Source: Verrucomicrobiota bacterium (GTDB lineage: Bacteria > Verrucomicrobiota > Verrucomicrobiia > Opitutales > Coraliomargaritaceae). From it: a DNA stretch of 64,000 bases. The notes under the pieces are model-generated. The model saw nothing but the letters and a program-made list of their open reading frames with translations. It did not search any database and had not been told where the DNA came from. The stretch lies in the NCBI GenBank assembly GCA_039815375.1, contig JBCBZJ010000018.1, positions 1 to 64,000 of the forward strand. The letters are read 5' to 3'. The position numbers were made by a program, and so were the translations under genes. Of the stretch, positions 13,599-25,414 are shown in pieces (position 1 is the stretch's first letter; each line of letters opens with the position of its first letter).

Positions 13599-14066
13599 TT
13601 ACCGAAGGTTAATCTCTCGCATCTTATCGAAATCTCCGCGTTCACAGGCGTTTACGAATCCCTCAGCATAAGACTTTAACGTGTCCCAGCGCTTACGAAT
13701 TTGTTCAGCTTCTTCCTCTGTTATACGCTCGTCGATACCAGCGTTCGCGATTTCTCCAAGTAGAGAAGCGAACTGGCTGACCATTTCATGAGTTGCAGGG
13801 CTCAAGTTGTAAGCGTTTGAAGATAAGGGATCGTTGGAAACGAAGTAGCCACCTGACTTGGCAGCCAGCCATTTAACGAGTCGATTGTCCCCAGCTGCTT
13901 CGTTTAGAGCGGTAACGCGGTCTAGCGGGTTTCGCGATCCGCTCTGGTTCTCGCCTGCGGGTTGCGACCACTTGTAAATCAGAGATTGAGAGATCCCAAG
14001 ATCAGCTGCGATTGCCTTTGGAGGGCTATCCAAGAAGCAACTTTTTATTATTTCGTGTGATTGCAC
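13599..14066 (-). CDS. phage CII/CP76-like helix-turn-helix regulatory protein
   Basis: HTH AIAADLGISQSLIYKW followed by an AAGDNRLVKWLA segment resembling the GDN-L motif of P2-type CII (CP76) regulators. GTG start. It is transcribed divergently from the yqiJ-like operon. Confidence 0.5.
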   Translation of the reverse strand: MQSHEIIKSCFLDSPPKAIAADLGISQSLIYKWSQPAGENQSGSRNPLDRVTALNEAAGDNRLVKWLAAKSGGYFVSNDPLSSNAYNLSPATHEMVSQFASLLGEIANAGIDERITEEEAEQIRKRWDTLKSYAEGFVNACERGDFDKMREINLR

Positions 14067-14183: not shown

Positions 14184-14861
14184 ATGTTAGAAGAACTCTT
14201 CAGTGAAGCTCTGCGCTGGTATAATTTACCATGGAGCATTTTGTTGGCACTAACGACGCTATATTGGCTCATCGCGATTGCCGGGATGATCGATTTCGAT
14301 TTTCTTGATTTTGACTTCGATTTTGATGCCGATGTGGATGTTGACGTCGATGCGGATGTTGATGTCGATGCAAACGTAGGAGGAGGCGCTTTTGCGGGTG
14401 TCCTTGAGTTTATACATTTAGGTAGTTTGCCGCTGATGGTGGTCGTTTCCGGTCTTGTAATCTGTGCATGGTCGCTCGCACTAATTGGAAATTTCTACTT
14501 GAACCCAATGAATATTGGCCTCATCGGCTTTGGGATATCCGTTGCGGTTGCCTTGCCCGGTATCGTGATCTCCTCTCTGGCACTTTGGCCGGTCGCGCAT
14601 TTTTACAAGCGCCTGGAGAAAGATACTGATGGCAACCTGACTATGATCGGGAGAACCTGCAAAGTCCGATCGGATCGTGTTGATAGTAGTTTTGGTCAAG
14701 CGGAGGTAAGCACTTCGGAGGGTCCTTTGGTCGTTAACGTGAGACTCGCTACTGAGAGTGGTCCTCTTGTTGAAGGCGATTCGGCGCTTATTATCAGCGA
14801 AGATACGAAGCACATGATCTACACAATCAGGAAAATTTCTAACGAATTAACAAAAATCTAA
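14184..14861 (+). CDS. YqiJ/NfeD-like inner-membrane protein (flotillin partner, C-terminal OB-fold)
   Basis: Architecture and several blocks align with E. coli YqiJ (IHLGSLPLMVVV; C-terminal GDSALII beta domain). The N-terminal loop carries a (DF)n/(DV)n acidic repeat. Confidence 0.7.
   Translation: MLEELFSEALRWYNLPWSILLALTTLYWLIAIAGMIDFDFLDFDFDFDADVDVDVDADVDVDANVGGGAFAGVLEFIHLGSLPLMVVVSGLVICAWSLALIGNFYLNPMNIGLIGFGISVAVALPGIVISSLALWPVAHFYKRLEKDTDGNLTMIGRTCKVRSDRVDSSFGQAEVSTSEGPLVVNVRLATESGPLVEGDSALIISEDTKHMIYTIRKISNELTKI
14292..14372 (+). repeat. in-frame hexanucleotide tandem repeat (GAT-TTY / GAT-GTN) encoding DFDFLDFDFDFDADVDVDVDADVDVDA
   Basis: Read directly: gat ttc gat ttt ctt gat ttt gac ttc gat ttt gat gcc gat gtg gat gtt gac gtc gat gcg gat gtt gat gtc gat gca. 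Confidence 0.8.
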
Positions 14862-14873
14862 CTATAGAAAGAT

Positions 14874-16946
14874 ATGACATACTCACTAGCAATAATTGAA
14901 TCCGTGGGGCTTGCGGTCATCCTAGGCATCGTTGCGGTGCTCATCGGACTGCTTGTAACCATTATCAAGATGTATCAAAAGGTTGACCAGGGCTATGCCC
15001 TTGTCAGGAATGGGGCAGGTGGGACTAGCGTTTCATTCGCTGGCATGGTCAGTGTCCCGATATTTCATAAACTGGAAATCATGGACTTGCGGGTTCAGCA
15101 CTTGCCGCTGGACCGCCGGGGTAAGGACGGTCTTATCTGTCGTGACAACGTGCGTGCCGACATTAGTGTTGGCTTCTACGTGCGGGTGAATCCTCACGAA
15201 AATGATGTGAAGGCGGTTGCGAAGGCTGTTGGTTGTGAGCGTGCCTCCGATCTCGACAAGATTCGCGAGCTCTTTGACGCCAAGTTCTCGGAAGCTCTAA
15301 AGACAGCAGGTAAGCAATTTGATTTCGAGAGTCTCTACACGGACCGTATTGATTTTCGGAATAAGATCATCGAAGTGATCGGCCAGGACCTGAACGGCTA
15401 TGCGCTCGAGGATGTGGCGATTGACTATCTTGAGCAAACACCGCTTGAAGCGATGAACCCGGATAACATTCTCGACTCTGAAGGTATAAAGAAGATTACC
15501 GAACGGACTGCGGCGCAGGCGATTCTCGAGAACGAGATTCAAAATAGACGTATCCGCACGATTAAGCAGAACGATGTTCAGCGCGTGGAGGCGGTCTTGG
15601 AGCTTGAAAAGCAGCAGGCTGAAGCGGAGGAGAAGCAGAAGCGCGAAGTGTCTGTGATTCGTTCTCGTGAGGAAGCTGAGGCCAAGCGGGTCGCTGAAGA
15701 ACAGCGTCTGCGTGCGGAGCAAGCTCACATTAACACCGAGGAAGAGCTCCAAATTGCGACGCAGAATATGGAACGCCAAGTTATTGTTGCTGAAAAAAGC
15801 AAGCAAAAGACCGAAGCTGTTGAAACAGAGCGTGTTGAGCGGGATCGCCAGTTAGAGGTCGTCGAACGTGACAAGGTAACAACGCTCGCCGATATCGAGA
15901 AGACGAAGGCTGTCGAAGTCGAGAAGCGTAACATTCAGGATGTGATCAAGGAACGCGTAATGGTCGAAAAGACTGTCGTGGTCGAACAGGAGAAGATTAA
16001 GGACACTGAAGCATTTGCGGGTGCAGATCGTCAAAAGCGTGTTGCGATCACGGATGCTGAAGAAAAGGCTGAGCAAGAGAAGCTCATTCGCCTGAAGCAG
16101 GCAGAAGCCAGTCAGGAAGCTGAAAAGCTTAAGGCTGATGAAGAGTTCTATAATGAAGTTCGTCGTGCTGAATCCAGCAAGCGAGCGACCGAGCTATCTT
16201 CCGAAGAAATGATTATCGCTGCCGAGGCTGAGGAGGCTTCTTCTGTGAAGCAAGCTGAAGCAAAGAAGAATATTGCCGAAGCCACCGCAGCTGAGACTGC
16301 AGCCATTGGATTGGGTGAAGCCCAGATCATGGAAGCCAAGGCGTCTGCTAGCCTGAAGCAAGGTGAGGCAGATGCGAAGTCTTCCGAACTTAAGTTCGAG
16401 GCAGACGCTAAGGGTATAACCGAGAAGGCGGCTGCGATGAAGCTCTTCAATGAGTCCGGTAAGGAGCATGAAGAGTTCAAACTCCGCCTCGAAAAGGACA
16501 AGGAGATCGAACTCGAGAGCATCCGCGTCGAAGAGGATATTGCTCGCCACCAGGCTCAAGTGCTCTCCGAATCGCTTAAGAATACTAAAGTCGATATTGT
16601 CGGTGGCAGTGCAGAATTCTACAATGACATTATAGGAGCCGTCACACGCGGTAAGTCTTTCGAGCGCACAATTAACAGTAGCCCAGCTTTGACGGATGTG
16701 AAGGAGACCTTCTTTAATGGAGATCCTGAGTATTTTCGCGCGCAGATTGCGAACTGGTTGAGCGACTTCAACATCAGTGTTGAAAGTGTAAAGGACCTTT
16801 CGGTTGCAAGCTTTATGCTAAAGTTAGCTTCAGAAACGAGCGACGAAGAGAAGCTAAACCACATCCGTGGGTTGTCAGGTATGGCTGAGAAGTTTGGGTT
16901 TGCGAATGAGACCATCCAGAATCTGCTCTCCCTCGGGCAGAAGTAG
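14874..16946 (+). CDS. flotillin family (SPFH/band 7) protein, YqiK/FloT-like, with an extended E/A/K-rich coiled coil
   Basis: The N-terminal TM and SPFH domain align closely with E. coli YqiK (VRNGAGG...VPIFHKLE...). It starts 12 nt after the yqiJ-like stop. Confidence 0.85.
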   Translation: MTYSLAIIESVGLAVILGIVAVLIGLLVTIIKMYQKVDQGYALVRNGAGGTSVSFAGMVSVPIFHKLEIMDLRVQHLPLDRRGKDGLICRDNVRADISVGFYVRVNPHENDVKAVAKAVGCERASDLDKIRELFDAKFSEALKTAGKQFDFESLYTDRIDFRNKIIEVIGQDLNGYALEDVAIDYLEQTPLEAMNPDNILDSEGIKKITERTAAQAILENEIQNRRIRTIKQNDVQRVEAVLELEKQQAEAEEKQKREVSVIRSREEAEAKRVAEEQRLRAEQAHINTEEELQIATQNMERQVIVAEKSKQKTEAVETERVERDRQLEVVERDKVTTLADIEKTKAVEVEKRNIQDVIKERVMVEKTVVVEQEKIKDTEAFAGADRQKRVAITDAEEKAEQEKLIRLKQAEASQEAEKLKADEEFYNEVRRAESSKRATELSSEEMIIAAEAEEASSVKQAEAKKNIAEATAAETAAIGLGEAQIMEAKASASLKQGEADAKSSELKFEADAKGITEKAAAMKLFNESGKEHEEFKLRLEKDKEIELESIRVEEDIARHQAQVLSESLKNTKVDIVGGSAEFYNDIIGAVTRGKSFERTINSSPALTDVKETFFNGDPEYFRAQIANWLSDFNISVESVKDLSVASFMLKLASETSDEEKLNHIRGLSGMAEKFGFANETIQNLLSLGQK

Positions 16947-17039: not shown

Positions 17040-20000
17040 ATGGGAAGCGAAAATTCAGCAGGAGATCAGAAACTAGAGGGTGGTGCCTACGAAGTGATTC
17101 GTAACCGACTCACCGCTCAAAGCTCTGAGCTCTTGAGCCGAGTGCAGAAGCTTGATCAGGAGCGGAAGAAAGTTTTTGGTGCGACGGATACGCAACTACT
17201 TGCGACTGATCGTATCCAAACGGCCAATAATTGTATCCCGCGAGGGATGATCGCACTTCCGGGTGGACGGTTCATCTTTGGTTACAACGTTCACATGGGG
17301 CTGAAGTCCCAGATAGAGGTGACTGATGTATTTGCCAAGTTCCGCTACGAGCCTGCAGACCATTCCTTTCATGAAGAGCCTCTAGTTGCGCTCCAGTCGA
17401 GTGAATTTCAGGCGGACTTTCAGTATCTCTATAAATACTACAAGAAGACCTTCTTTGCGAAGTTCATGATCAGTGGGCCTCACTTGCTGATGGTCTTTCA
17501 GGTCAGCGAAGACGTAAGAGATGTTAAGGTCTTTAAGTGGCTGATCGAAGGAGAGAGCCTGAGCTATCTCGGAAACCGGTTCGAGCATGAATATGCCTTT
17601 CCGGATCAGCATTCGTTTACTTGGATCCGTGCGCACCGCGACCTTCACCGGACAGGGAGTTTTCCTCATGTTTCGATCGATGACCGACTTTTCGTCGAGA
17701 CGACAGGCGGCGATCTCACCATTAAGATCGAAGACAACACTGATAGCGGTGAAGGTATCTACTCAGAGCCGGTCGAGAATTCCGATCAGACACTCGACGA
17801 TGCCGACATCCACTACGCTAGTGTGGACAGTCTTGTTTTCCTACGGATAAAGCCCTACCAGGAGAAGGAGACACGCTACTTCATTTACAATGAAAAGGTT
17901 AAGGAGGTGAAGCGTGTGGATTCCGTCGAGCATGCCTGCGTTCTTCTTCCCGAGGACCACGGCGTGATTTTTGCGAATGGTTACTATCTACACAATGGTG
18001 AGTTTAAGCGCTTCGGTGATTCCGAGGGCGAAATGACATTTGAGCGTGTGGTGAAGGCGCCAAATGGTGAAGACTACCTTTACGTTTTCTTCCAGCAGAA
18101 GGAGGGCCTGTATCAGCTCCTACCCTACAATATCATCGCGCAGCGGGTCGAAAATCCCATTGAGGCAAACGGCTATACGATTTTTGAGAATGGTTCGTTG
18201 ACCTATTTTAAGGCGCACGAGGAACCACAGAAGCATCATACCCTTCAGGTTTGGCAAACGCCATACTCTGCGGAGGAACAAGCTGTGGAAGCGACGGGAG
18301 ACAGCTTCTTGTTCAAAGTCGGCAATGCGAGTATCGTTCGCTGTATTTCGGAGTGTCACGCGATCTACAATCTACTCCAGCGCGAGGAGGCTTATGAGGG
18401 ATTGTATCTGGATTTGGTAAAGTCCTGCGTGACGACGATTGATAGCTATTTCTGGATTGGTTCAGAAGAGGCCTTCGATCTAAAGGATGTCATCTCTCAT
18501 ATTCGCGATACTGGGCAGTCGGCTATTGCTGAGTTCGATAAGGTTCAACGCATCCGAAAGTCGACACTCGATCAAACCAAGGAAGTTCAGGTTCAGGCTC
18601 GAAAGCTTTTTGCCGAGCTGGCTGGTGTGCAGCCCGAAAATGTTCGAGTCTTCGTTGATCATCTGGCAAACCTGCGGACTTTGCGTGGCGAAGTGATTGG
18701 TCTACGCGAACTGAGATATGTCGACCTGACTCTTTGTCAGGAGCTCGATGAGGGCGTTTCCAAACAGATGGATGAGCTGGCTAAAGCGACAGTTGAATTC
18801 TTGCTTAAGGAAGAGGCGCTTGTTCCATATCGGACGCAGCTTAGCGAGGCTGAAGCCTCAATTGTTGAGGTCAAAACCGCCGCGATGGCGAAGGAGCTTC
18901 TTGAGGAGCTCGATAAGACCGGCGACCAACTGGAGATGCTTATTGAAACGGTTTCGAATCTTAAGATCGAAGATGCTACCGAAACGACGCGCATTATCGA
19001 TAGTATATCCGAGCTCTTCACTGAATTGAACCGATTGAAAGCGGAGGTGAAACGGAACCGCCAGGAGCTCATGCGGAAAGAAGGCTCCGCTCAGTTTCAA
19101 GCACAGATTAAGCTGTTGGAGCAGTCTGTAGCAAATTATCTCGATATCGCCGATGAGCCTGAGCGTTGCGATGAGTTCTTAACCAAAGCGATTGTCCAGC
19201 TTGAGGAGCTTGAAGGGAAGTATGCCGAGTTCGATGAGTTCATTGACATTCTCGCGGACAAGCGGGCCGAGCTCTATAACACTTTCGAATCGAAGAAGAC
19301 GACGCTTCAAGAGGTTCGCAACCGTCGTGTGGGTAAGCTCGCTCAATCGGCTCAGCGCATTCTCGGAGGAATCGAAAATCGCTCGAAAGCTCTAAAAGAG
19401 ATCAATGAGATCAATGGCTATTTCGCGTCGGACCTGATGGTAGACAAGGTCCGTGACCTCGTTAAAGAGCTAAAGGATCTCGGTGAGGCCATGAAGGGTG
19501 ACGAGATCATTACTCGCTTGAAGACGATCCAAGGTGACGCTATACGACAGCTGAAGGATAAGCAGGACCTCTTCGTTGATGGGGAGAACCTCATCAAGTT
19601 CGGTAAGCATCAATTCACGGTAAACACTCAGGCGCTGGAGCTGACTTCGGTATTACGGGATGGTGACCTATATCTTCACCTTTCAGGCACTCAGTTCTAC
19701 GAGAAAGTGGAAGATGCAGAGTTGGTCGCTACGAAGTCTGTCTGGAACATGCATTGTTGCTCCGAGAATGAGACGGTCTATCGTGCTGAGTTCTTAGCGT
19801 ATAAGTTTCTAGAGTCGCAAGACGATGGCAATTATCTCGAACTAGCGGATGAAGAGCGGCTTGAGGCTATCCGCGAGTTTATGTCTCCCCGCTATCAGGA
19901 GGCCTATACGAAGGGCCTGCACGATCTGGATGCACGTTTGATTGTGGATCAGCTGATGACGACACACTTGCATATAGGACTGCTACGATACGGGCCAGAA

Positions 20001-22148
20001 GTTCGAGCGTGCGGGCTTGTCTTCTTGCATAGTCAGGCAGGGCAATGCCTAACCGATCACCTGCAGGAAAGGCTGGACGCTTTTGGCCATATGTTGAGAG
20101 CATTTCCTGATCATCATACGCAGAGGAAATACATTGAGGAGCTAAGCGATGCGATCTCCAAGTTCTGCCTTGAGACTGGGATCTTCGATGAAAAGCTGGC
20201 TCCTCAGGCTGCTGAATATCTGTTCTATGAGATTGTTCAAGATGAAGATATTTATAGTTCCAAGGAGGCCGCTGAGATTTTAGAGAACTTTCGAAAGGAG
20301 TTATCCATCAAGCGAGTGGAGAAGTTCTATCAGCAAGCAATCGAGCAGGTGTCGTCCGATGTTCTTAGCGAGTTCCGCGTAATTCTTGACTGGCTCGAAG
20401 GCTTTGCCACGACGCATTCTTTGAGCCAGGAAACGCGCGCGTTTCTTCCTGAGGCTGCGGCGCATTTTGTGAAGGGTGGGCTTGAGCGCCGCCGCATTCT
20501 CGATGTAGCAATTAAACATGATATCAAAGGGCTCAAGGGGACTCACGGTGCCGTGGGAGAGGGTGGTATCTACCATTTCAATTATCTGGAGTTTATGGAA
20601 CGTCTGCGGGCATTCGAATCCGGAGATCAGGCATTGTTTTTTTCTTACGAGGCCAGAAAAAAGCATGTGCTAGCAGAAAGTACTGAGGAGCTTCGACTGA
20701 GGGAGTTTAAGCCCCAGGTCTTGAGCGCTTTTGTTCGAAACCGCCTGCTAGATGAAGTTTATCTACCATTGATCGGGGACAATCTAGCGAAGCAAATTGG
20801 TAGCACCGGTGAAAATACGCGGACGGACCGTATGGGCCTTCTCCTCCTTATCTCGCCTCCGGGCTATGGTAAGACGACGCTGATGGAATACGTTGCGAAC
20901 CGCTTGGGTATAACATTTGTCAAGGTAAACGGGCCATCCCTTGGGCATGACGTCACGTCTCTAGATCCTTCGCAGTGCGCTAACTCTGCGGCTCGTCAGG
21001 AGGTCGAGAAAATTAATCTAGCCTTCGAGATGGGGGACAATGTGCTCATCTACCTTGACGATATTCAGCACACGAATCCTGAGCTGCTCCAAAAGTTCAT
21101 CTCGCTTTGTGATGGCACGCGAAGAATTGAGGGTGTCTACAAAGGCAAGTCCCGGACCTACGATTTCCGGGGTCGAAAGGTTGCTGTGGTTATGGCAGGT
21201 AATCCATATACCGAAACTGGTGGAAAGTTCCAAATTCCGGACATGTTGGCGAATCGCGCTGACACCTATAATCTGGGTGATATTATCGGCGAGAACAGCA
21301 AGTATTTCGAGGCGTCGTATGTAGAGAATTCACTAACATCGAATCGCACCTTGGGGATTCTTGCCGGTAAGTCCCGGAAGGATGTCTATGCAGTCATGCA
21401 GATTGCGGAGACGGGTCAACGCGAGGGAGTAAGCTTCGAATCGTCGTATTCTATGGAAGAGATCAACGATATGGTTTCTGTGATGAAGAAGATGATGCGT
21501 GTTCGAGATACCATTCTCCGTGTCAATCTTGAGTATGTGGGATCTGCCGCACAGGCGGATGACTATAGAACAGAGCCTTCGTTTAAGCTTCAGGGATCGT
21601 ATCGTAACATGAACCGGATCGCAGAGAAACTCTTGCCGATCATGACCGATGAGGAGGTTGAGCAATTGATCATCGACCACTACACAGGTGAAGCGCAGAC
21701 CTTGACCAACGGAGCCGAAGCCAATTTGCTCAAGTTCAAAGAAATTGAAGGCAAGTTGAGCGTTGAAGACCTGAGCCGCTGGAACGAGATCAAGAAACGC
21801 TTCAATCGTAAGAAATTACTCGGAGGAAGCGAGGGTGACCCCGTGAATCGTGTGGTGGCACAGCTAGCCGATTTCAATGAAGGGCTAAACGAGATCGGTA
21901 GCGAGATTGCGAAGGGCAACAGTTCGAATCAGGACGGTATTAGCCAAGCGCTGAATCATCTCGCGGAGACTATCCAGAGCCAGTCGGCCCTTCCGAAGGA
22001 TGGAATAGTTGATGTCGGGCCGGGCTCACGTGAGCTTAGCGTAAAACTGGATAAGTCCTCGGTTACGGTTTTGAATGCCTTACTCGGATCAATGCAATCG
22101 CTGCTGAGTCAGGTCTCCGTCGATAGTGGGAAGGAGGAAAAGAAATAG
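17040..22148 (+). CDS. 1,702-aa uncharacterised protein with a long central coiled coil and a C-terminal AAA+ ATPase domain (AAA_5/MoxR-dynein-like)
   Basis: Single P-loop LLLISPPGYGKTT at nt 20862-20879, a Walker-B-like VLIYLDDIQH (~21043-21072) and an arginine-containing sensor region. About residues 520-900 are heptad-rich (E/L/K/R). I place the start at ATG 17040, which has AGGA 6 nt upstream; the track used an upstream GTG at 16992. The gene lies 93 nt after flotillin with no terminator in the gap. Confidence 0.8.
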   Translation: MGSENSAGDQKLEGGAYEVIRNRLTAQSSELLSRVQKLDQERKKVFGATDTQLLATDRIQTANNCIPRGMIALPGGRFIFGYNVHMGLKSQIEVTDVFAKFRYEPADHSFHEEPLVALQSSEFQADFQYLYKYYKKTFFAKFMISGPHLLMVFQVSEDVRDVKVFKWLIEGESLSYLGNRFEHEYAFPDQHSFTWIRAHRDLHRTGSFPHVSIDDRLFVETTGGDLTIKIEDNTDSGEGIYSEPVENSDQTLDDADIHYASVDSLVFLRIKPYQEKETRYFIYNEKVKEVKRVDSVEHACVLLPEDHGVIFANGYYLHNGEFKRFGDSEGEMTFERVVKAPNGEDYLYVFFQQKEGLYQLLPYNIIAQRVENPIEANGYTIFENGSLTYFKAHEEPQKHHTLQVWQTPYSAEEQAVEATGDSFLFKVGNASIVRCISECHAIYNLLQREEAYEGLYLDLVKSCVTTIDSYFWIGSEEAFDLKDVISHIRDTGQSAIAEFDKVQRIRKSTLDQTKEVQVQARKLFAELAGVQPENVRVFVDHLANLRTLRGEVIGLRELRYVDLTLCQELDEGVSKQMDELAKATVEFLLKEEALVPYRTQLSEAEASIVEVKTAAMAKELLEELDKTGDQLEMLIETVSNLKIEDATETTRIIDSISELFTELNRLKAEVKRNRQELMRKEGSAQFQAQIKLLEQSVANYLDIADEPERCDEFLTKAIVQLEELEGKYAEFDEFIDILADKRAELYNTFESKKTTLQEVRNRRVGKLAQSAQRILGGIENRSKALKEINEINGYFASDLMVDKVRDLVKELKDLGEAMKGDEIITRLKTIQGDAIRQLKDKQDLFVDGENLIKFGKHQFTVNTQALELTSVLRDGDLYLHLSGTQFYEKVEDAELVATKSVWNMHCCSENETVYRAEFLAYKFLESQDDGNYLELADEERLEAIREFMSPRYQEAYTKGLHDLDARLIVDQLMTTHLHIGLLRYGPEVRACGLVFLHSQAGQCLTDHLQERLDAFGHMLRAFPDHHTQRKYIEELSDAISKFCLETGIFDEKLAPQAAEYLFYEIVQDEDIYSSKEAAEILENFRKELSIKRVEKFYQQAIEQVSSDVLSEFRVILDWLEGFATTHSLSQETRAFLPEAAAHFVKGGLERRRILDVAIKHDIKGLKGTHGAVGEGGIYHFNYLEFMERLRAFESGDQALFFSYEARKKHVLAESTEELRLREFKPQVLSAFVRNRLLDEVYLPLIGDNLAKQIGSTGENTRTDRMGLLLLISPPGYGKTTLMEYVANRLGITFVKVNGPSLGHDVTSLDPSQCANSAARQEVEKINLAFEMGDNVLIYLDDIQHTNPELLQKFISLCDGTRRIEGVYKGKSRTYDFRGRKVAVVMAGNPYTETGGKFQIPDMLANRADTYNLGDIIGENSKYFEASYVENSLTSNRTLGILAGKSRKDVYAVMQIAETGQREGVSFESSYSMEEINDMVSVMKKMMRVRDTILRVNLEYVGSAAQADDYRTEPSFKLQGSYRNMNRIAEKLLPIMTDEEVEQLIIDHYTGEAQTLTNGAEANLLKFKEIEGKLSVEDLSRWNEIKKRFNRKKLLGGSEGDPVNRVVAQLADFNEGLNEIGSEIAKGNSSNQDGISQALNHLAETIQSQSALPKDGIVDVGPGSRELSVKLDKSSVTVLNALLGSMQSLLSQVSVDSGKEEKK

Positions 22149-22168
22149 GCCAACCGAGTGGGTTGGCC
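22148..22168. terminator. perfect 8-bp stem hairpin GGCCAACC-gagtg-GGTTGGCC between convergent genes; likely terminator for pspA, possibly bidirectional
   Basis: Read directly. A T-rich tract lies on the minus strand immediately after the stem (complement of gaaaagaaatag). Confidence 0.4.
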
Positions 22169-22195
22169 TACTGTTAGACTAGTAGAGCCTAAAGC

Positions 22196-22945
22196 TCAGC
22201 TTGTCTTATCTTTTTCCTGCTCCTTCTCAGTGATGATGAGTGGAATCTCGTCACCTTCAGATTCAATACCAGTCGTAAATCCAAGCTCTCCGGAGAGGCT
22301 TTTGAGTGCTTCATGTGCGAGTGCTTTCTCTTCGGACTCACTTGGGATATCAAAAGTAGGCATCGCATCCTTCGCAACGCGCTCTCGGCCAGCAGCCTTT
22401 GCACGCGCATCTTCAACCATGTTCTCAAGTCGACTGAGTGTTTCACTAGCGCCACCCATATCGGCTGTCATGCTACTGGCCATTTCCGAGAGGTCTGCTG
22501 TCGCTTCCTTAACCTTAAGCTCGTTGATTTTGCTTTGAAGCGTTTCAATCTTCTTTTGTGCCTCTTTAACGCTCGCTTCCCGGTTTCGAGTCATCTCTTG
22601 GTAAGTCCGCTCTGAGGCTTCCAGTTGATCGCGGTTTGTCGCCAGCTCTGTGCGAACTTCGTTGAGTTTGAGTGCTTGCCTGCCCGCAAGCTCTTGATTG
22701 CCGGCTGTTACGTTTGACTTAATCTTTGTCAATAGTTGCGTCTCCTGTTCTTCCTGACCTTTGACCTGAGCAATCAACTTCTCAACCATTGCTGCATGGG
22801 CAGCAAGACCCTGATTATAACGTTGAATTTGCTTTCGAAGATTCTCCTTCTCTGCCCCTAGGAGCGCATCGGGGTTTGTTTTCTCTAGTTCTGTGATAGC
22901 AGAACCAAAGATGCTTTTGAAAAAATGTAAGATTCTTTTTATCAT
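22196..22945 (-). CDS. pspA: PspA/IM30 (Vipp1) family protein, bacterial ESCRT-III-like
   Basis: N-terminal amphipathic helix and the ELEKTNPDALL...ENLRKQIQRY...A block are similar to PspA/Vipp1 (KAEDPEKVL...). The protein is predicted coiled coil throughout. 249 aa. Confidence 0.7.
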   Translation of the reverse strand: MIKRILHFFKSIFGSAITELEKTNPDALLGAEKENLRKQIQRYNQGLAAHAAMVEKLIAQVKGQEEQETQLLTKIKSNVTAGNQELAGRQALKLNEVRTELATNRDQLEASERTYQEMTRNREASVKEAQKKIETLQSKINELKVKEATADLSEMASSMTADMGGASETLSRLENMVEDARAKAAGRERVAKDAMPTFDIPSESEEKALAHEALKSLSGELGFTTGIESEGDEIPLIITEKEQEKDKTS

Positions 22946-23367: not shown

Positions 23368-23820
23368 ATGCCCCTCAAAAAAGTTAGTGTTTCTGTTCTC
23401 CTGAAAGAGAAAAGCTCCTCGGTCTACTGTGTCTCCGAGGAGACCACGGTTGATGCCGCTGTTGCTGAGATGAATCGTTATCGCATCGGTTCGATCATGG
23501 TCAAGAAAGACGGCAAGATAGTCGGTATATTCACGGAACGTGACGTATTGACCAGATTGGTTTCTGCGGGGCGCGATCCCAAAACGACTGATGTTCGGGA
23601 AGTGATGACGCGGGATTTCAAGCAGATTCAACCCGATACATCCGTTGAGGACGCGATGCAGTTGATCACGGACAAACGCGTGCGGCACTTGCCGGTGCTG
23701 AATGGCGACGAGCTGGTTGGAATGATATCAATCGGCGATGTCACTCGCTGGCTACTGAAAGTGAACGAGATGGAGGCAGAGAACCTCCGCCGATATGTTT
23801 TTTCGGAGTATCCGGGCTGA
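23368..23820 (+). CDS. CBS domain pair protein
   Basis: Two CBS motifs (IGSIMVKKDGKIVGIFTERDV; RHLPVLNGDELVGMISIGDV). Confidence 0.8.
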   Translation: MPLKKVSVSVLLKEKSSSVYCVSEETTVDAAVAEMNRYRIGSIMVKKDGKIVGIFTERDVLTRLVSAGRDPKTTDVREVMTRDFKQIQPDTSVEDAMQLITDKRVRHLPVLNGDELVGMISIGDVTRWLLKVNEMEAENLRRYVFSEYPG

Positions 23821-23885
23821 TCCGTGACAAGTTTGTTTGATTGTTACGAAATAGAGTCTTTTTGCTTGCAAATCGTAACATAGGC

Positions 23886-24404
23886 ATGTGTCTAAAAAAT
23901 GTGCCTAATGTTTACACTAAGTTATTTCGCCGAAAAAAAAGTAGTCTCTTAGTTAATCGAATCGAAGCTTCGCAGGATTCGGAAAAGAACTCTGCTCATG
24001 ATGCCTCCGGAGATGGCTCAGATGACTCACGAGCGCTTCAGGTTTGGATCTATCCGGATACGCCGGAATTAAAAAAGCAGACACTTATGCGCCCGCGCCA
24101 GATACACGGTCCGGTATTTACAATCGGTCGACGTAAATCAAGCTCTACGATCAATAGCATGGAGTCGCTACCGGATTTGTGCATCAACGATCAACAGCCC
24201 TATTCGGTTTCTAGAAATCATTGTCAAATCGAGCTTCGTTCCGGTCGTGTCTTTTTGAAAGATCTGGATAGTCGTATAGGCACCCGATTGGGAGACAAGC
24301 GTCTGGGAGGTGGAAGCAGCTTCAGTGTGGGTGTAGGTGAGCACAAGTTGATTTTGGGCAGGCAGAGTAAAGGTTATTGTTTCCGGTTGGTCGTTTCTGA
24401 GTAG
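23886..24404 (+). CDS. FHA domain protein; start uncertain
   Basis: FHA core GPVFTIGR...SVSRNHCQIE...GRVFLKDLDSRIGTRL. The ATG at 23886 is the first ATG. ATG 24087 would give the domain alone. The track start at 23841 is a TTG. Confidence 0.6.
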   Translation: MCLKNVPNVYTKLFRRKKSSLLVNRIEASQDSEKNSAHDASGDGSDDSRALQVWIYPDTPELKKQTLMRPRQIHGPVFTIGRRKSSSTINSMESLPDLCINDQQPYSVSRNHCQIELRSGRVFLKDLDSRIGTRLGDKRLGGGSSFSVGVGEHKLILGRQSKGYCFRLVVSE

Positions 24405-24496
24405 AGCGGCGTTTTCTGCAATCGGCTTGACTCGTCGCATCGAGTGCGTCGACATTTCCGCTTTAAATCGCAATCTCTCAGTAGAAAGGAATTCAG

Positions 24497-24805
24497 ATGG
24501 CTGGTGTCGGAAAATTACTCAAACAAGCTCAAAAAATGCAGAAACAGATGGAGGCTATTCAGCAGGAGCTTGCTGAGACTGTCTTGGAGGTTTCCAGCGG
24601 TGGCGGTGCCATTACTATAAAAGTTAATGGGCAGGGCGAGTTTCAGAATTTTAAAATCGACCCGGAGTTTCTCAAAGAGGATGCCGAATTTGTCGAAGAA
24701 ACTCTGCTTTCGGCGGTTCAGGAAGCTGCGACAAAGGCTAAAGAAACCAGCGAAGAAGCCATGGGTGCTGTAACCGGTGGCATGGGAGGCTTTCCGGGCT
24801 TGTAG
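24497..24805 (+). CDS. ybaB: YbaB/EbfC nucleoid-associated protein
   Basis: LLKQAQKMQKQMEAIQQEL...GGGAITIKVNG signature. AAAGGA RBS. Confidence 0.9.
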   Translation: MAGVGKLLKQAQKMQKQMEAIQQELAETVLEVSSGGGAITIKVNGQGEFQNFKIDPEFLKEDAEFVEETLLSAVQEAATKAKETSEEAMGAVTGGMGGFPGL

Positions 24806-24817
24806 GATTCAGTCACT

Positions 24818-25414
24818 TTGACGCCTGCTTACGATAGCTTGTTGCAGCAGCTCAAGCGCTTGCCGGGTCTAGGCTATCGCTCGGCCGAGCGAATCGCTAT
24901 GCATCTCTTGGTTGAGAGTCCGGAAGAGTTATCCGAGCTGATTGATTCTTTAGGTAACGCGAGATCCGCAGTTGGCCGTTGCAGGATCTGTGGGAATATC
25001 GCTGAAGATGAGATCTGCGGGATTTGTGCTGATGAAAGGCGCGACAGAAATAAGGTCTGTGTTGTCGAGCATGTCCCGGATCTGCTTGCAATTGAGCGCT
25101 CGGCAGCCTGGAAGGGCACTTACCATGTGCTGCACGGCAAACTCTCGCCGATTCATGGTGTAGGTCCTGAGAAATTGAACTTCAAGGCACTCAAGCAGCG
25201 TATTGAGGCCGGTGAGATCGCGGAGTTTGTGCTCGCGTTGTCGAACGATATCGAAGGTCAAGCTACTTGCCACTACATCCAGGAAGAACTGGTGGGTGAT
25301 CGCCCTATTGAAGTGACTCGGATCGGGTTCGGCTTGCCCAGTGGGGGCGGTGTGACCTATGCGGACTCGGTAACTTTACGAAGTGCACTTGAGGGACGCA
25401 CAGCCTACGAATAG
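24818..25414 (+). CDS. recR: recombination protein RecR
   Basis: HhH motif LPGLGYRSAERIAMHLL, a C4 zinc finger CRICGNIAEDEICGIC and a Toprim domain. It has a TTG start in the track and is immediately downstream of ybaB. Confidence 0.9.
   Translation: MTPAYDSLLQQLKRLPGLGYRSAERIAMHLLVESPEELSELIDSLGNARSAVGRCRICGNIAEDEICGICADERRDRNKVCVVEHVPDLLAIERSAAWKGTYHVLHGKLSPIHGVGPEKLNFKALKQRIEAGEIAEFVLALSNDIEGQATCHYIQEELVGDRPIEVTRIGFGLPSGGGVTYADSVTLRSALEGRTAYE

Follow-up and report, generated by a model that had tools for sequence, protein, structure and literature searches.

The stretch of DNA analysed here (the window) comprises 64,000 nucleotides (nt) of a Verrucomicrobiota bacterium, contig JBCBZJ010000018.1, and the gene under study occupies positions 17040-22148 of its + strand, encoding a protein of 1,702 amino acids (aa). 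This protein is an ordinary full-length member of the widespread DUF3686-DUF7902-AAA+ family, and its gene is the last one of a deeply conserved operon, in which it follows the genes for a YqiJ/NfeD-like membrane protein and a YqiK-type flotillin. Linkage to the flotillin and YqiJ-like genes is near-obligate across many phyla, and linkage to PspA and CesT/Tir genes is recurrent and non-universal. We consider it rather probable that the ATPase acts as a MoxR-like remodeller on flotillin and membrane-stress assemblies.

Family membership was determined from profile searches. The protein matches the complete DUF3686 profile (PF12458, positions 1-448 of 448) over residues 30-471 with an E value of 2.1e-176, DUF7902 (PF25472) over residues 592-676 with an E value of 1.5e-25, and AAA (PF00004) over residues 1268-1391 with an E value of 3.9e-9. 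An NCBIfam scan of the protein returned P-loop-level matches alone, far under the cut-offs. The first-pass annotation had stated that the protein fits no family it could name, which was mistaken, since relatives with this full-length Pfam set are annotated by NCBI. 'DNA repair ATPase' is the usual name in the sources that name relatives, and the Pfam title of DUF3686 is 'ATPase involved in DNA repair'. No match to a characterised family, a possibility also raised in that annotation, emerged; the DUF3686 family is experimentally uncharacterised.

The search for homologues covered 5.8 billion proteins and found more than 4,695 relatives, a number that is a lower bound. The best 120 of these share the Pfam set of the query and are 50-79% identical to it; 119 of them measure 1,627-1,978 aa and align over 94% or more of its length. 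The full-length homologues, more than 4,600 in number, reach at least 10 phyla, with 44-80% identity to the window protein and a size of about 1,600-1,900 aa. The nearest relatives are from a Puniceicoccaceae metagenome-assembled genome (MAG; 78%) and from Coraliomargarita algicola (77%), which places the window in a verrucomicrobium of the Opitutales/Puniceicoccaceae group. When one genome per species was scanned, at least 568 loci were obtained, and the matches listed include Verrucomicrobiota, Planctomycetota, Bacteroidota, Desulfobacterota, Clostridia, Kiritimatiellota and Omnitrophota. Further copies with 35-41% identity are found in Acidobacteriota, Pseudomonas, Proteus, Vibrio, Photobacterium, Halomonas, Streptomyces, Nonomuraea and Deinococcus. 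The cross-phylum alignment is practically gapless over residues 1-1600, and mean identity to the query amounts to 83-85% for the AAA+ core and 50-73% for the N-terminal domain, falling to 31-36% over residues 1001-1200 and to less than 30% in the last 100 residues. Two Desulfobacterales relatives (P0072 and P0108) have ankyrin repeats in addition, according to Pfam Ank families in a precomputed domain list.

The open frame on the + strand runs from 16992 or 17040 to 22148. We chose the ATG at 17040, which gives the 1,702-aa product, because it aligns with a first Met that is invariant in 18 homologues, and the open reading frame (ORF) proposed in the first pass is thereby borne out. The ORF is intact in all relatives. 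That it might be a fusion of two genes or a frameshift artefact is excluded, because the homologues are collinear and full-length and the alignment is near gapless. No transmembrane segment was found in the protein (maximum 19-residue Kyte-Doolittle value 1.22), as had been claimed, and the protein is soluble.

The first gene of the operon (14184-14861, + strand) encodes a 225-aa YqiJ/YuaF (NfeD-like) membrane protein with hydrophobic segments and a beta-rich C-terminal part. Its match to the YqiJ_N profile (E 2.7e-4) lies just below the cut-off, and comparison with E. coli YqiJ by BLASTP gives a weak likeness (E 0.002). At residues ~36-64, between its first two hydrophobic segments, this protein has a strongly acidic DFDFDFDADVDVDVDADVDVDA loop. 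The second gene (14874-16946, + strand) encodes a 690-aa YqiK-type flotillin with an N-terminal transmembrane helix, a diverged SPFH/band-7 domain, a Glu/Ala-rich coiled coil and a conserved C-terminal module specific to the family. The window flotillin itself has no Pfam match; two of 16 family members reach Band_7 (2.5e-12), and the window copy does not. A profile of the 16 orthologues aligned by hhalign to E. coli YqiK with 99.96% probability and an E value of 7e-39 over 404 columns, covering the transmembrane segment, the SPFH domain and the coiled coil. Since positive charges follow the single transmembrane helix, the SPFH domain should, by the positive-inside rule, be cytoplasmic, on the same side of the membrane as the soluble ATPase.

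The C-terminal module of the flotillin (residues ~520-690, nt 16434-16943) contains invariant residues, among them G529, H532, E533, E534, F535, K536, G577 and G578. In the hhalign comparison with E. coli YqiK as single template, the first 431 columns match and the module (the last ~170-196 residues) is undetected. This single-template comparison weakly suggests that the module is a possible docking site for the ATPase. In E. coli the YqiJ-YqiK pair occurs without the ATPase as third gene.

The flotillin stop codon lies 93 nt upstream of the ATPase ATG on the same strand, with no terminator-like site in between, in agreement with the earlier proposal that the two genes are co-transcribed. The arrangement is conserved. 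Of the 63 loci with at least 3.2 kb of upstream DNA, 60 have, by tblastn, a flotillin homologue upstream in the same orientation, and in most loci the flotillin is 44-89% identical across phyla. In 55 of 84 loci the flotillin gene has a YqiJ-like homologue upstream of it. The flotillin-ATPase pair, or the trio of flotillin, YqiJ-like and ATPase genes, is also present in Symmachiella, Sulfidibacter, Coraliomargarita, Pseudomonas (plasmid pQBR103), Vibrio, Proteus and Streptomyces, where the Streptomyces genes are annotated as 'flotillin family protein' and 'DNA repair ATPase'. About 100 nt typically separate the flotillin gene from the ATPase gene; in two Clostridia loci (L064 and L076) the two genes share 11 nt at the flotillin stop and ATPase start, an overlap suggestive of translational coupling. 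In some Bacteroidota (L046, 6524-6946; L023, 5612-6698; L077, 4838-6738) unrelated small genes lie between the two, with gaps of up to 2.4 kb; these inserted genes are DUF559 endonuclease-like, DMP19-like, DUF3997 and DUF3592.

The first-pass annotation regarded the neighbourhood as unlike any known one, but both the operon and the architecture of the ATPase are already in print. Ravi et al. 2024 (mSystems, PMC11237479) describe a class of operons encoding PspA, CesT/Tir, band-7/flotillin, YqiJ/YuaF and AAA+ proteins, and a Dokdonia row of their supplement lists a 'Betapropeller+Coiled-coil+AAA-ATPase' after the flotillin. The same authors note widely distributed 'abbreviated operons' without the PspA-CesT/Tir dyad, which may work with PspA encoded elsewhere, and they independently propose a role in membrane dynamics, without experiment. 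DUF3686 is not mentioned in the available portion of their supplementary text. The ATPase is also not mentioned in a survey of P. aeruginosa SPFH proteins or in a 2009 paper on SPFH evolution. For the bac operon of P. aeruginosa, which is of the CesT/PspA type, the published passages searched mention no such ATPase. Among the titles and abstracts retrieved for YqiK/YqiJ, none was relevant.

Two AlphaFold2 models, built from 54-sequence alignments and with a mean predicted local distance difference test (pLDDT) score of about 80, were used together with the sequence motifs to delimit the AAA+ module at residues ~1225-1460 (nt 20712-21419, + strand), comprising core and lid. Its Walker A motif, SPPGYGKTT (residues 1272-1280, nt 20853-20879), is by eye the sole P-loop; the strict pattern [AG]xxxxGK[ST] is matched nowhere in the protein because the first position is Ser. 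The Walker B region reads LIYLDDIQH (residues 1336-1344, nt 21045-21071), and LIYLDD (1336-1341) is the sole hhhhD[DE] motif in the 1,702 residues. Both motifs had been recognised correctly in the first pass. A beta-hairpin (1362-1375) precedes the sensor-1 strand in the model, and the lid helices span 1420-1458. Residues K1278, D1340, D1341, N1388 and R1406 are invariant in alignments of 19 and of 54 sequences, and from their positions N1388 is a candidate for sensor 1 and R1406 a candidate for the Arg finger. An SMC/Rad50/SbcC-type protein, including the known SMC-like repair ATPase that the first pass had considered, is ruled out by motif topology: both Walker motifs lie within residues 1272-1341, the N-terminus is beta-rich and there is no SMC or AAA_23 match.

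Comparison of the modelled AAA+ fold gave the MoxR proteins NorQ and CbbQ as best matches, at ~13% sequence identity, with lower fold scores for classical-clade AAA+ proteins such as Vps4. Among sequence profiles, PF00004 (37.5 bits) outscores the MoxR profile AAA_5 (E 1e-5, 25.8 bits against a cut-off of 22), AAA_3 reaches an E value of 0.2, and a search of PDB sequences with the family profile matched about 38 residues around the P-loop. A MoxR-like fold is thus supported by the model, whereas sequence profiles alone cannot separate the module from other AAA+ clades, so the AAA_5/MoxR-like assignment of the first pass stands by fold and not by sequence. The Walker B motif departs from the canonical hhhhDE of MoxR proteins, with DD in its place and both Asp residues invariant in the 54 sequences. 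The Walker B motif of E. coli DnaA, LLIDDIQFF, likewise has DD followed by IQ. DnaA itself is a tight ATP binder whose hydrolysis is slow and regulated. Because of this precedent, the DD Walker B would argue, by analogy, for a regulated rather than a dead ATPase.

The remainder of the protein was also examined in the models. The overall anatomy had been read correctly: the N-terminal region is large, the middle is helical, and one AAA+ module sits at the C-terminal end. A helix at residues 14-46 leads into the DUF3686 domain (residues 30-471, nt 17127-18452, + strand), modelled with pLDDT values mostly of 80-93 as some 26 strands at residues 52-406 with flanking helices. The strand-rich part is consistent with a six- or seven-bladed beta-propeller and is probably a propeller. 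Foldseek comparison of the N-terminal domain gave weak propeller matches (CyRPA, paraoxonase and the Vps11 WD40 domain; target-normalised template-modelling scores 0.30-0.35); propeller-plus-solenoid proteins are among the weak matches, and we draw no homology from them. The helical arm that follows (residues 423-843, nt 18306-19568, + strand) includes DUF7902 (592-676, nt 18813-19067) and is predicted to be all-helical, with helices of at most 58 residues connected by short loops. Judged from the model, it consists of bundled long helices resembling spectrin repeats or three-helix bundles. Heptad-type periodicity exceeds the 99th percentile of shuffled sequences only in residues 456-518 and 617-804. 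The coiled coil of ~400 aa proposed earlier is therefore right as to helical content and wrong as to continuity.

A small beta domain (residues 852-889, nt 19593-19706, + strand) comes next in the AlphaFold2 model and includes invariant G855, F859, L866, L868, H880, L881 and G883. Behind it lies a helical domain (residues 915-1222, nt 19782-20705, + strand), the least conserved structured part of the protein. The region after the AAA+ module (nt 21420-22145, + strand) comprises a conserved helical domain at residues ~1461-1600 and a variable, partly disordered tail at 1601-1702. A C-terminal extension had been noted before; it counts ~240 residues after core and lid instead of the ~270 residues given. 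PDB sequence searches, whether started from the protein alone or from the family profile, gave matches confined to ~40-90 residues around the P-loop and found no solved structure for any DUF3686 family member.

From the conserved operon and the modelled architecture we propose the following mechanism for the remodeller. The AAA+ modules would form a ring, as in other MoxR proteins, and the propeller and helical arms would bind the cytoplasmic flotillin/NfeD scaffold, possibly via the C-terminal module of the flotillin. Powered by ATP binding and hydrolysis, which the DD Walker B probably makes slow or regulated, the ATPase would build up or take apart flotillin assemblies or handle clients there. 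Such remodelling could be part of a membrane-stress response, which other phyla would wire to PspA (ESCRT-III-like) and CesT/Tir genes. The first-pass annotation had suggested a Vps4-like or dynein-like mechanoenzyme acting on flotillin or PspA assemblies. The gene neighbourhoods do point to these assemblies, but a specifically Vps4-like or dynein-like identity is not supported: a classical Vps4-like protein would have a MIT domain and a classical-clade fold, and here there is no MIT domain and MoxR folds score higher, while dynein/midasin-type proteins have several concatenated modules and here there is a single one, with one P-loop and one Walker B.

A more specific version of this proposal is an ATP-driven machine for assembly or disassembly of the flotillin cage, or for client extraction from it, in which a MoxR-like ring with six propeller-tipped arms docks on the conserved C-terminal module that is peculiar to operon-type flotillins. 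We offer it tentatively, as possible rather than probable. If true, it would be the first AAA+ remodeller specific to SPFH proteins, conserved in 10 or more bacterial phyla and carrying a wrong name in every database.

Several observations weigh against a remodeller of flotillin assemblies. Three of the 63 loci have unrelated genes and no flotillin gene in the 7 kb upstream of the ATPase. Gene adjacency shows that there is a functional link but not which partner acts on the other. With Asp at the Walker B position of the catalytic Glu, the module might be a nucleotide-dependent switch and not a motor. MoxR proteins normally work with a VWA partner, and no VWA/MIDAS partner was found by Pfam in the neighbouring ORFs of the window or in the called genes of related loci. 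The N-terminal model has a predicted template-modelling score of 0.50, so the packing of its domains is uncertain. Full-text literature searches returned no other paper on the DUF3686 family and no experimental study of any member.

The question of PspA bears directly on the substrate. The window encodes a 249-aa PspA/IM30-like coiled-coil protein (22196-22945, - strand), convergent with the ATPase gene, whose match to PspA_IM30 (E 6.8e-8) scores 32.8 bits against a Pfam cut-off of 33.9 bits. A 126-aa ORF on the opposite strand (22158-22538, +) overlaps this gene and is probably a shadow of it, because the apparent conservation of the ORF in locus L088 coincides with the PspA orthologue. In the Puniceicoccaceae MAG an orthologue that is 82% identical (PF04012 recorded) is situated downstream of the ATPase gene, at a distance of 3.5 kb and three genes. 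No homologue of the window protein was found in loci L001-L084. A hidden Markov model (HMM) built from the PspA of Bacteroidota operons does not detect it, nor is there BLAST-level similarity, and because the HMM misses it we did not count the gene as part of the operon. As judged by sequence, it appears to represent local synteny in close relatives, outside the conserved operon. No CesT/Tir-PspA dyad was found upstream of the window operon.

Other genomes do have PspA in the operon itself. In 13-17 Bacteroidota loci, genes matching CesT_Tir_1 (3e-53) and PspA_IM30 (7e-39) lie ahead of the YqiJ-like gene. The 425-kb megaplasmid pQBR103 of Pseudomonas fluorescens SBW25 (L086, 1-12214) has a PspA-headed extended operon, encoding PspA, a rhomboid protein, DUF2491, DUF350 and DUF1190 proteins, glutathionylspermidine synthase, a YqiJ-like protein, an SPFH protein and the 'DNA repair ATPase', which ties the ATPase to polyamine-linked PspA operons. 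These loci, the PspA-like gene that adjoins the operon in the window and lies near it in a close relative, and the view of Ravi et al. 2024 (PMC11237479) that AAA+/PspA pairs are ESCRT-like would all fit a Vps4-like remodeller of PspA, the bacterial ESCRT-III, with PspA polymers as the true substrate and flotillin as the membrane platform. We judge this unlikely, since PspA is absent near most loci, including all those of L001-L084 outside Bacteroidota, whereas the flotillin is nearly invariant. The window PspA-like gene is moreover convergent, non-orthologous to the operon PspA and three genes away in the closest MAG, and the ATPase has no MIT domain and a fold for which Vps4-type AAA+ proteins score below MoxR.

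The MoxR-like fold raises another alternative, a chaperone for client membrane-protein complexes that matures clients in flotillin microdomains, inserts cofactors into them or extracts them, without remodelling the scaffold itself. NorQ and CbbQ, the closest folds, are remodellers of client enzymes, and a propeller and a helical arm are typical modules for binding substrates or adaptors. The lack of a VWA/MIDAS partner and of any conserved client-enzyme gene nearby speaks against such a chaperone, the only conserved neighbours being the yqiJ-like and flotillin genes, and we give it a low probability. Much less likely still is an anti-phage or other conflict system acting at the membrane. A large NTPase in a small operon, the variable small genes inserted in Bacteroidota operons (DUF559 endonuclease-like and DMP19) and the presence of the family on megaplasmid pQBR103 would suit it. 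However, PADLOC gave no significant match (its sole hit, with E 0.004, is to IetA over the P-loop), relatives are absent from phage records, housekeeping genes flank the operon, and sequence conservation across phyla is unusually high, which would be unlike fast-evolving defence genes. Finally, the DNA repair function named in databases, which has in its favour the Pfam title, the propagated NCBI name and the presence of recR and ybaB 2-3 kb away in the window, is scarcely credible, since Pfam and NCBIfam profile scans found no nuclease, DNA-binding or SMC/Rad50-type domain (as the first-pass annotation had stated for nucleases), there is one AAA+ module and no split ABC head, in all sampled phyla the conserved neighbouring genes encode membrane proteins, and the proximity of recR is not conserved in relatives.

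The remaining features of the window lie on either side of the operon. Divergent from it is a gene for a CII/Phage_CP76-like helix-turn-helix (HTH) protein (13599-14066, - strand; Pfam Phage_CP76, E 9e-8). Its homologues occupy the same divergent position in Verrucomicrobiota loci L004, L005, L009, L011 and L042 and again in L088, and in the Kiritimatiellota locus L036 a homologue lies upstream on the other strand. The HTH gene is conserved only in Verrucomicrobiota and Kiritimatiellota relatives and may be a candidate operon regulator in this lineage. A GC-rich, terminator-like hairpin of 12 pairs lies between the convergent stop codons (22144-22172) and matches the consensus only; from its sequence it is likely a bidirectional terminator. 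Scans for sigma-70 promoters and terminators were at chance level overall, as was a sigma-54 promoter search, in which the region ahead of the operon gave no site. At 23368-25414 on the + strand, downstream of the ATPase gene, are genes for CBS-pair, FHA, YbaB/EbfC and RecR proteins, and the proximity of RecR in the window could feed the 'DNA repair' label.

The window holds one more ordinary copy of the gene, and the operon and its likely role have been published before. What bacterial flotillins and other SPFH scaffolds do, and how these large assemblies form and come apart, is unsettled, and the ATPase provides a handle on this problem. The family is present in tractable hosts, namely Proteus mirabilis, Vibrio campbellii, P. 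fluorescens SBW25 with pQBR103, Streptomyces and Hymenobacter. The name 'DNA repair ATPase' is without support and probably misleads thousands of annotations.

When compared with known systems, the window protein has the same domains and size as the other DUF3686, DUF7902 and AAA proteins named 'DNA repair ATPase', is collinear with them and shows no structural difference; the family name implies a function for which we found no evidence. Its operon matches the 'abbreviated operon' of Ravi et al. 2024, with a YqiK-type flotillin, a YqiJ-type gene and an AAA+ gene, and differs from their full operon in having no CesT/Tir-PspA dyad and, instead, a diverged PspA-like gene that is convergent downstream. 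The E. coli YqiJ-YqiK pair is homologous to the first two genes and has the same order, but E. coli has no third gene, and the conserved C-terminal module of the operon-type flotillin is not detectable in YqiK. In comparison with the MoxR proteins NorQ and CbbQ, the window protein adds an N-terminal extension of ~1,220 residues and a C-terminal helical domain of ~140 residues, has DD instead of DE in Walker B and is without a VWA/MIDAS partner gene. FtsH, a classical-clade protease, is anchored in the membrane, and Vps4 is an enzyme of the classical clade that carries a MIT domain. A protease domain, a MIT domain and a transmembrane segment are all missing from the window protein, whose fold is MoxR-like. 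As functional analogies only, FtsH with HflK/C and Vps4 with ESCRT-III resemble the proposed arrangement in that an AAA+ ring is coupled, genetically or physically, to an oligomeric membrane scaffold.

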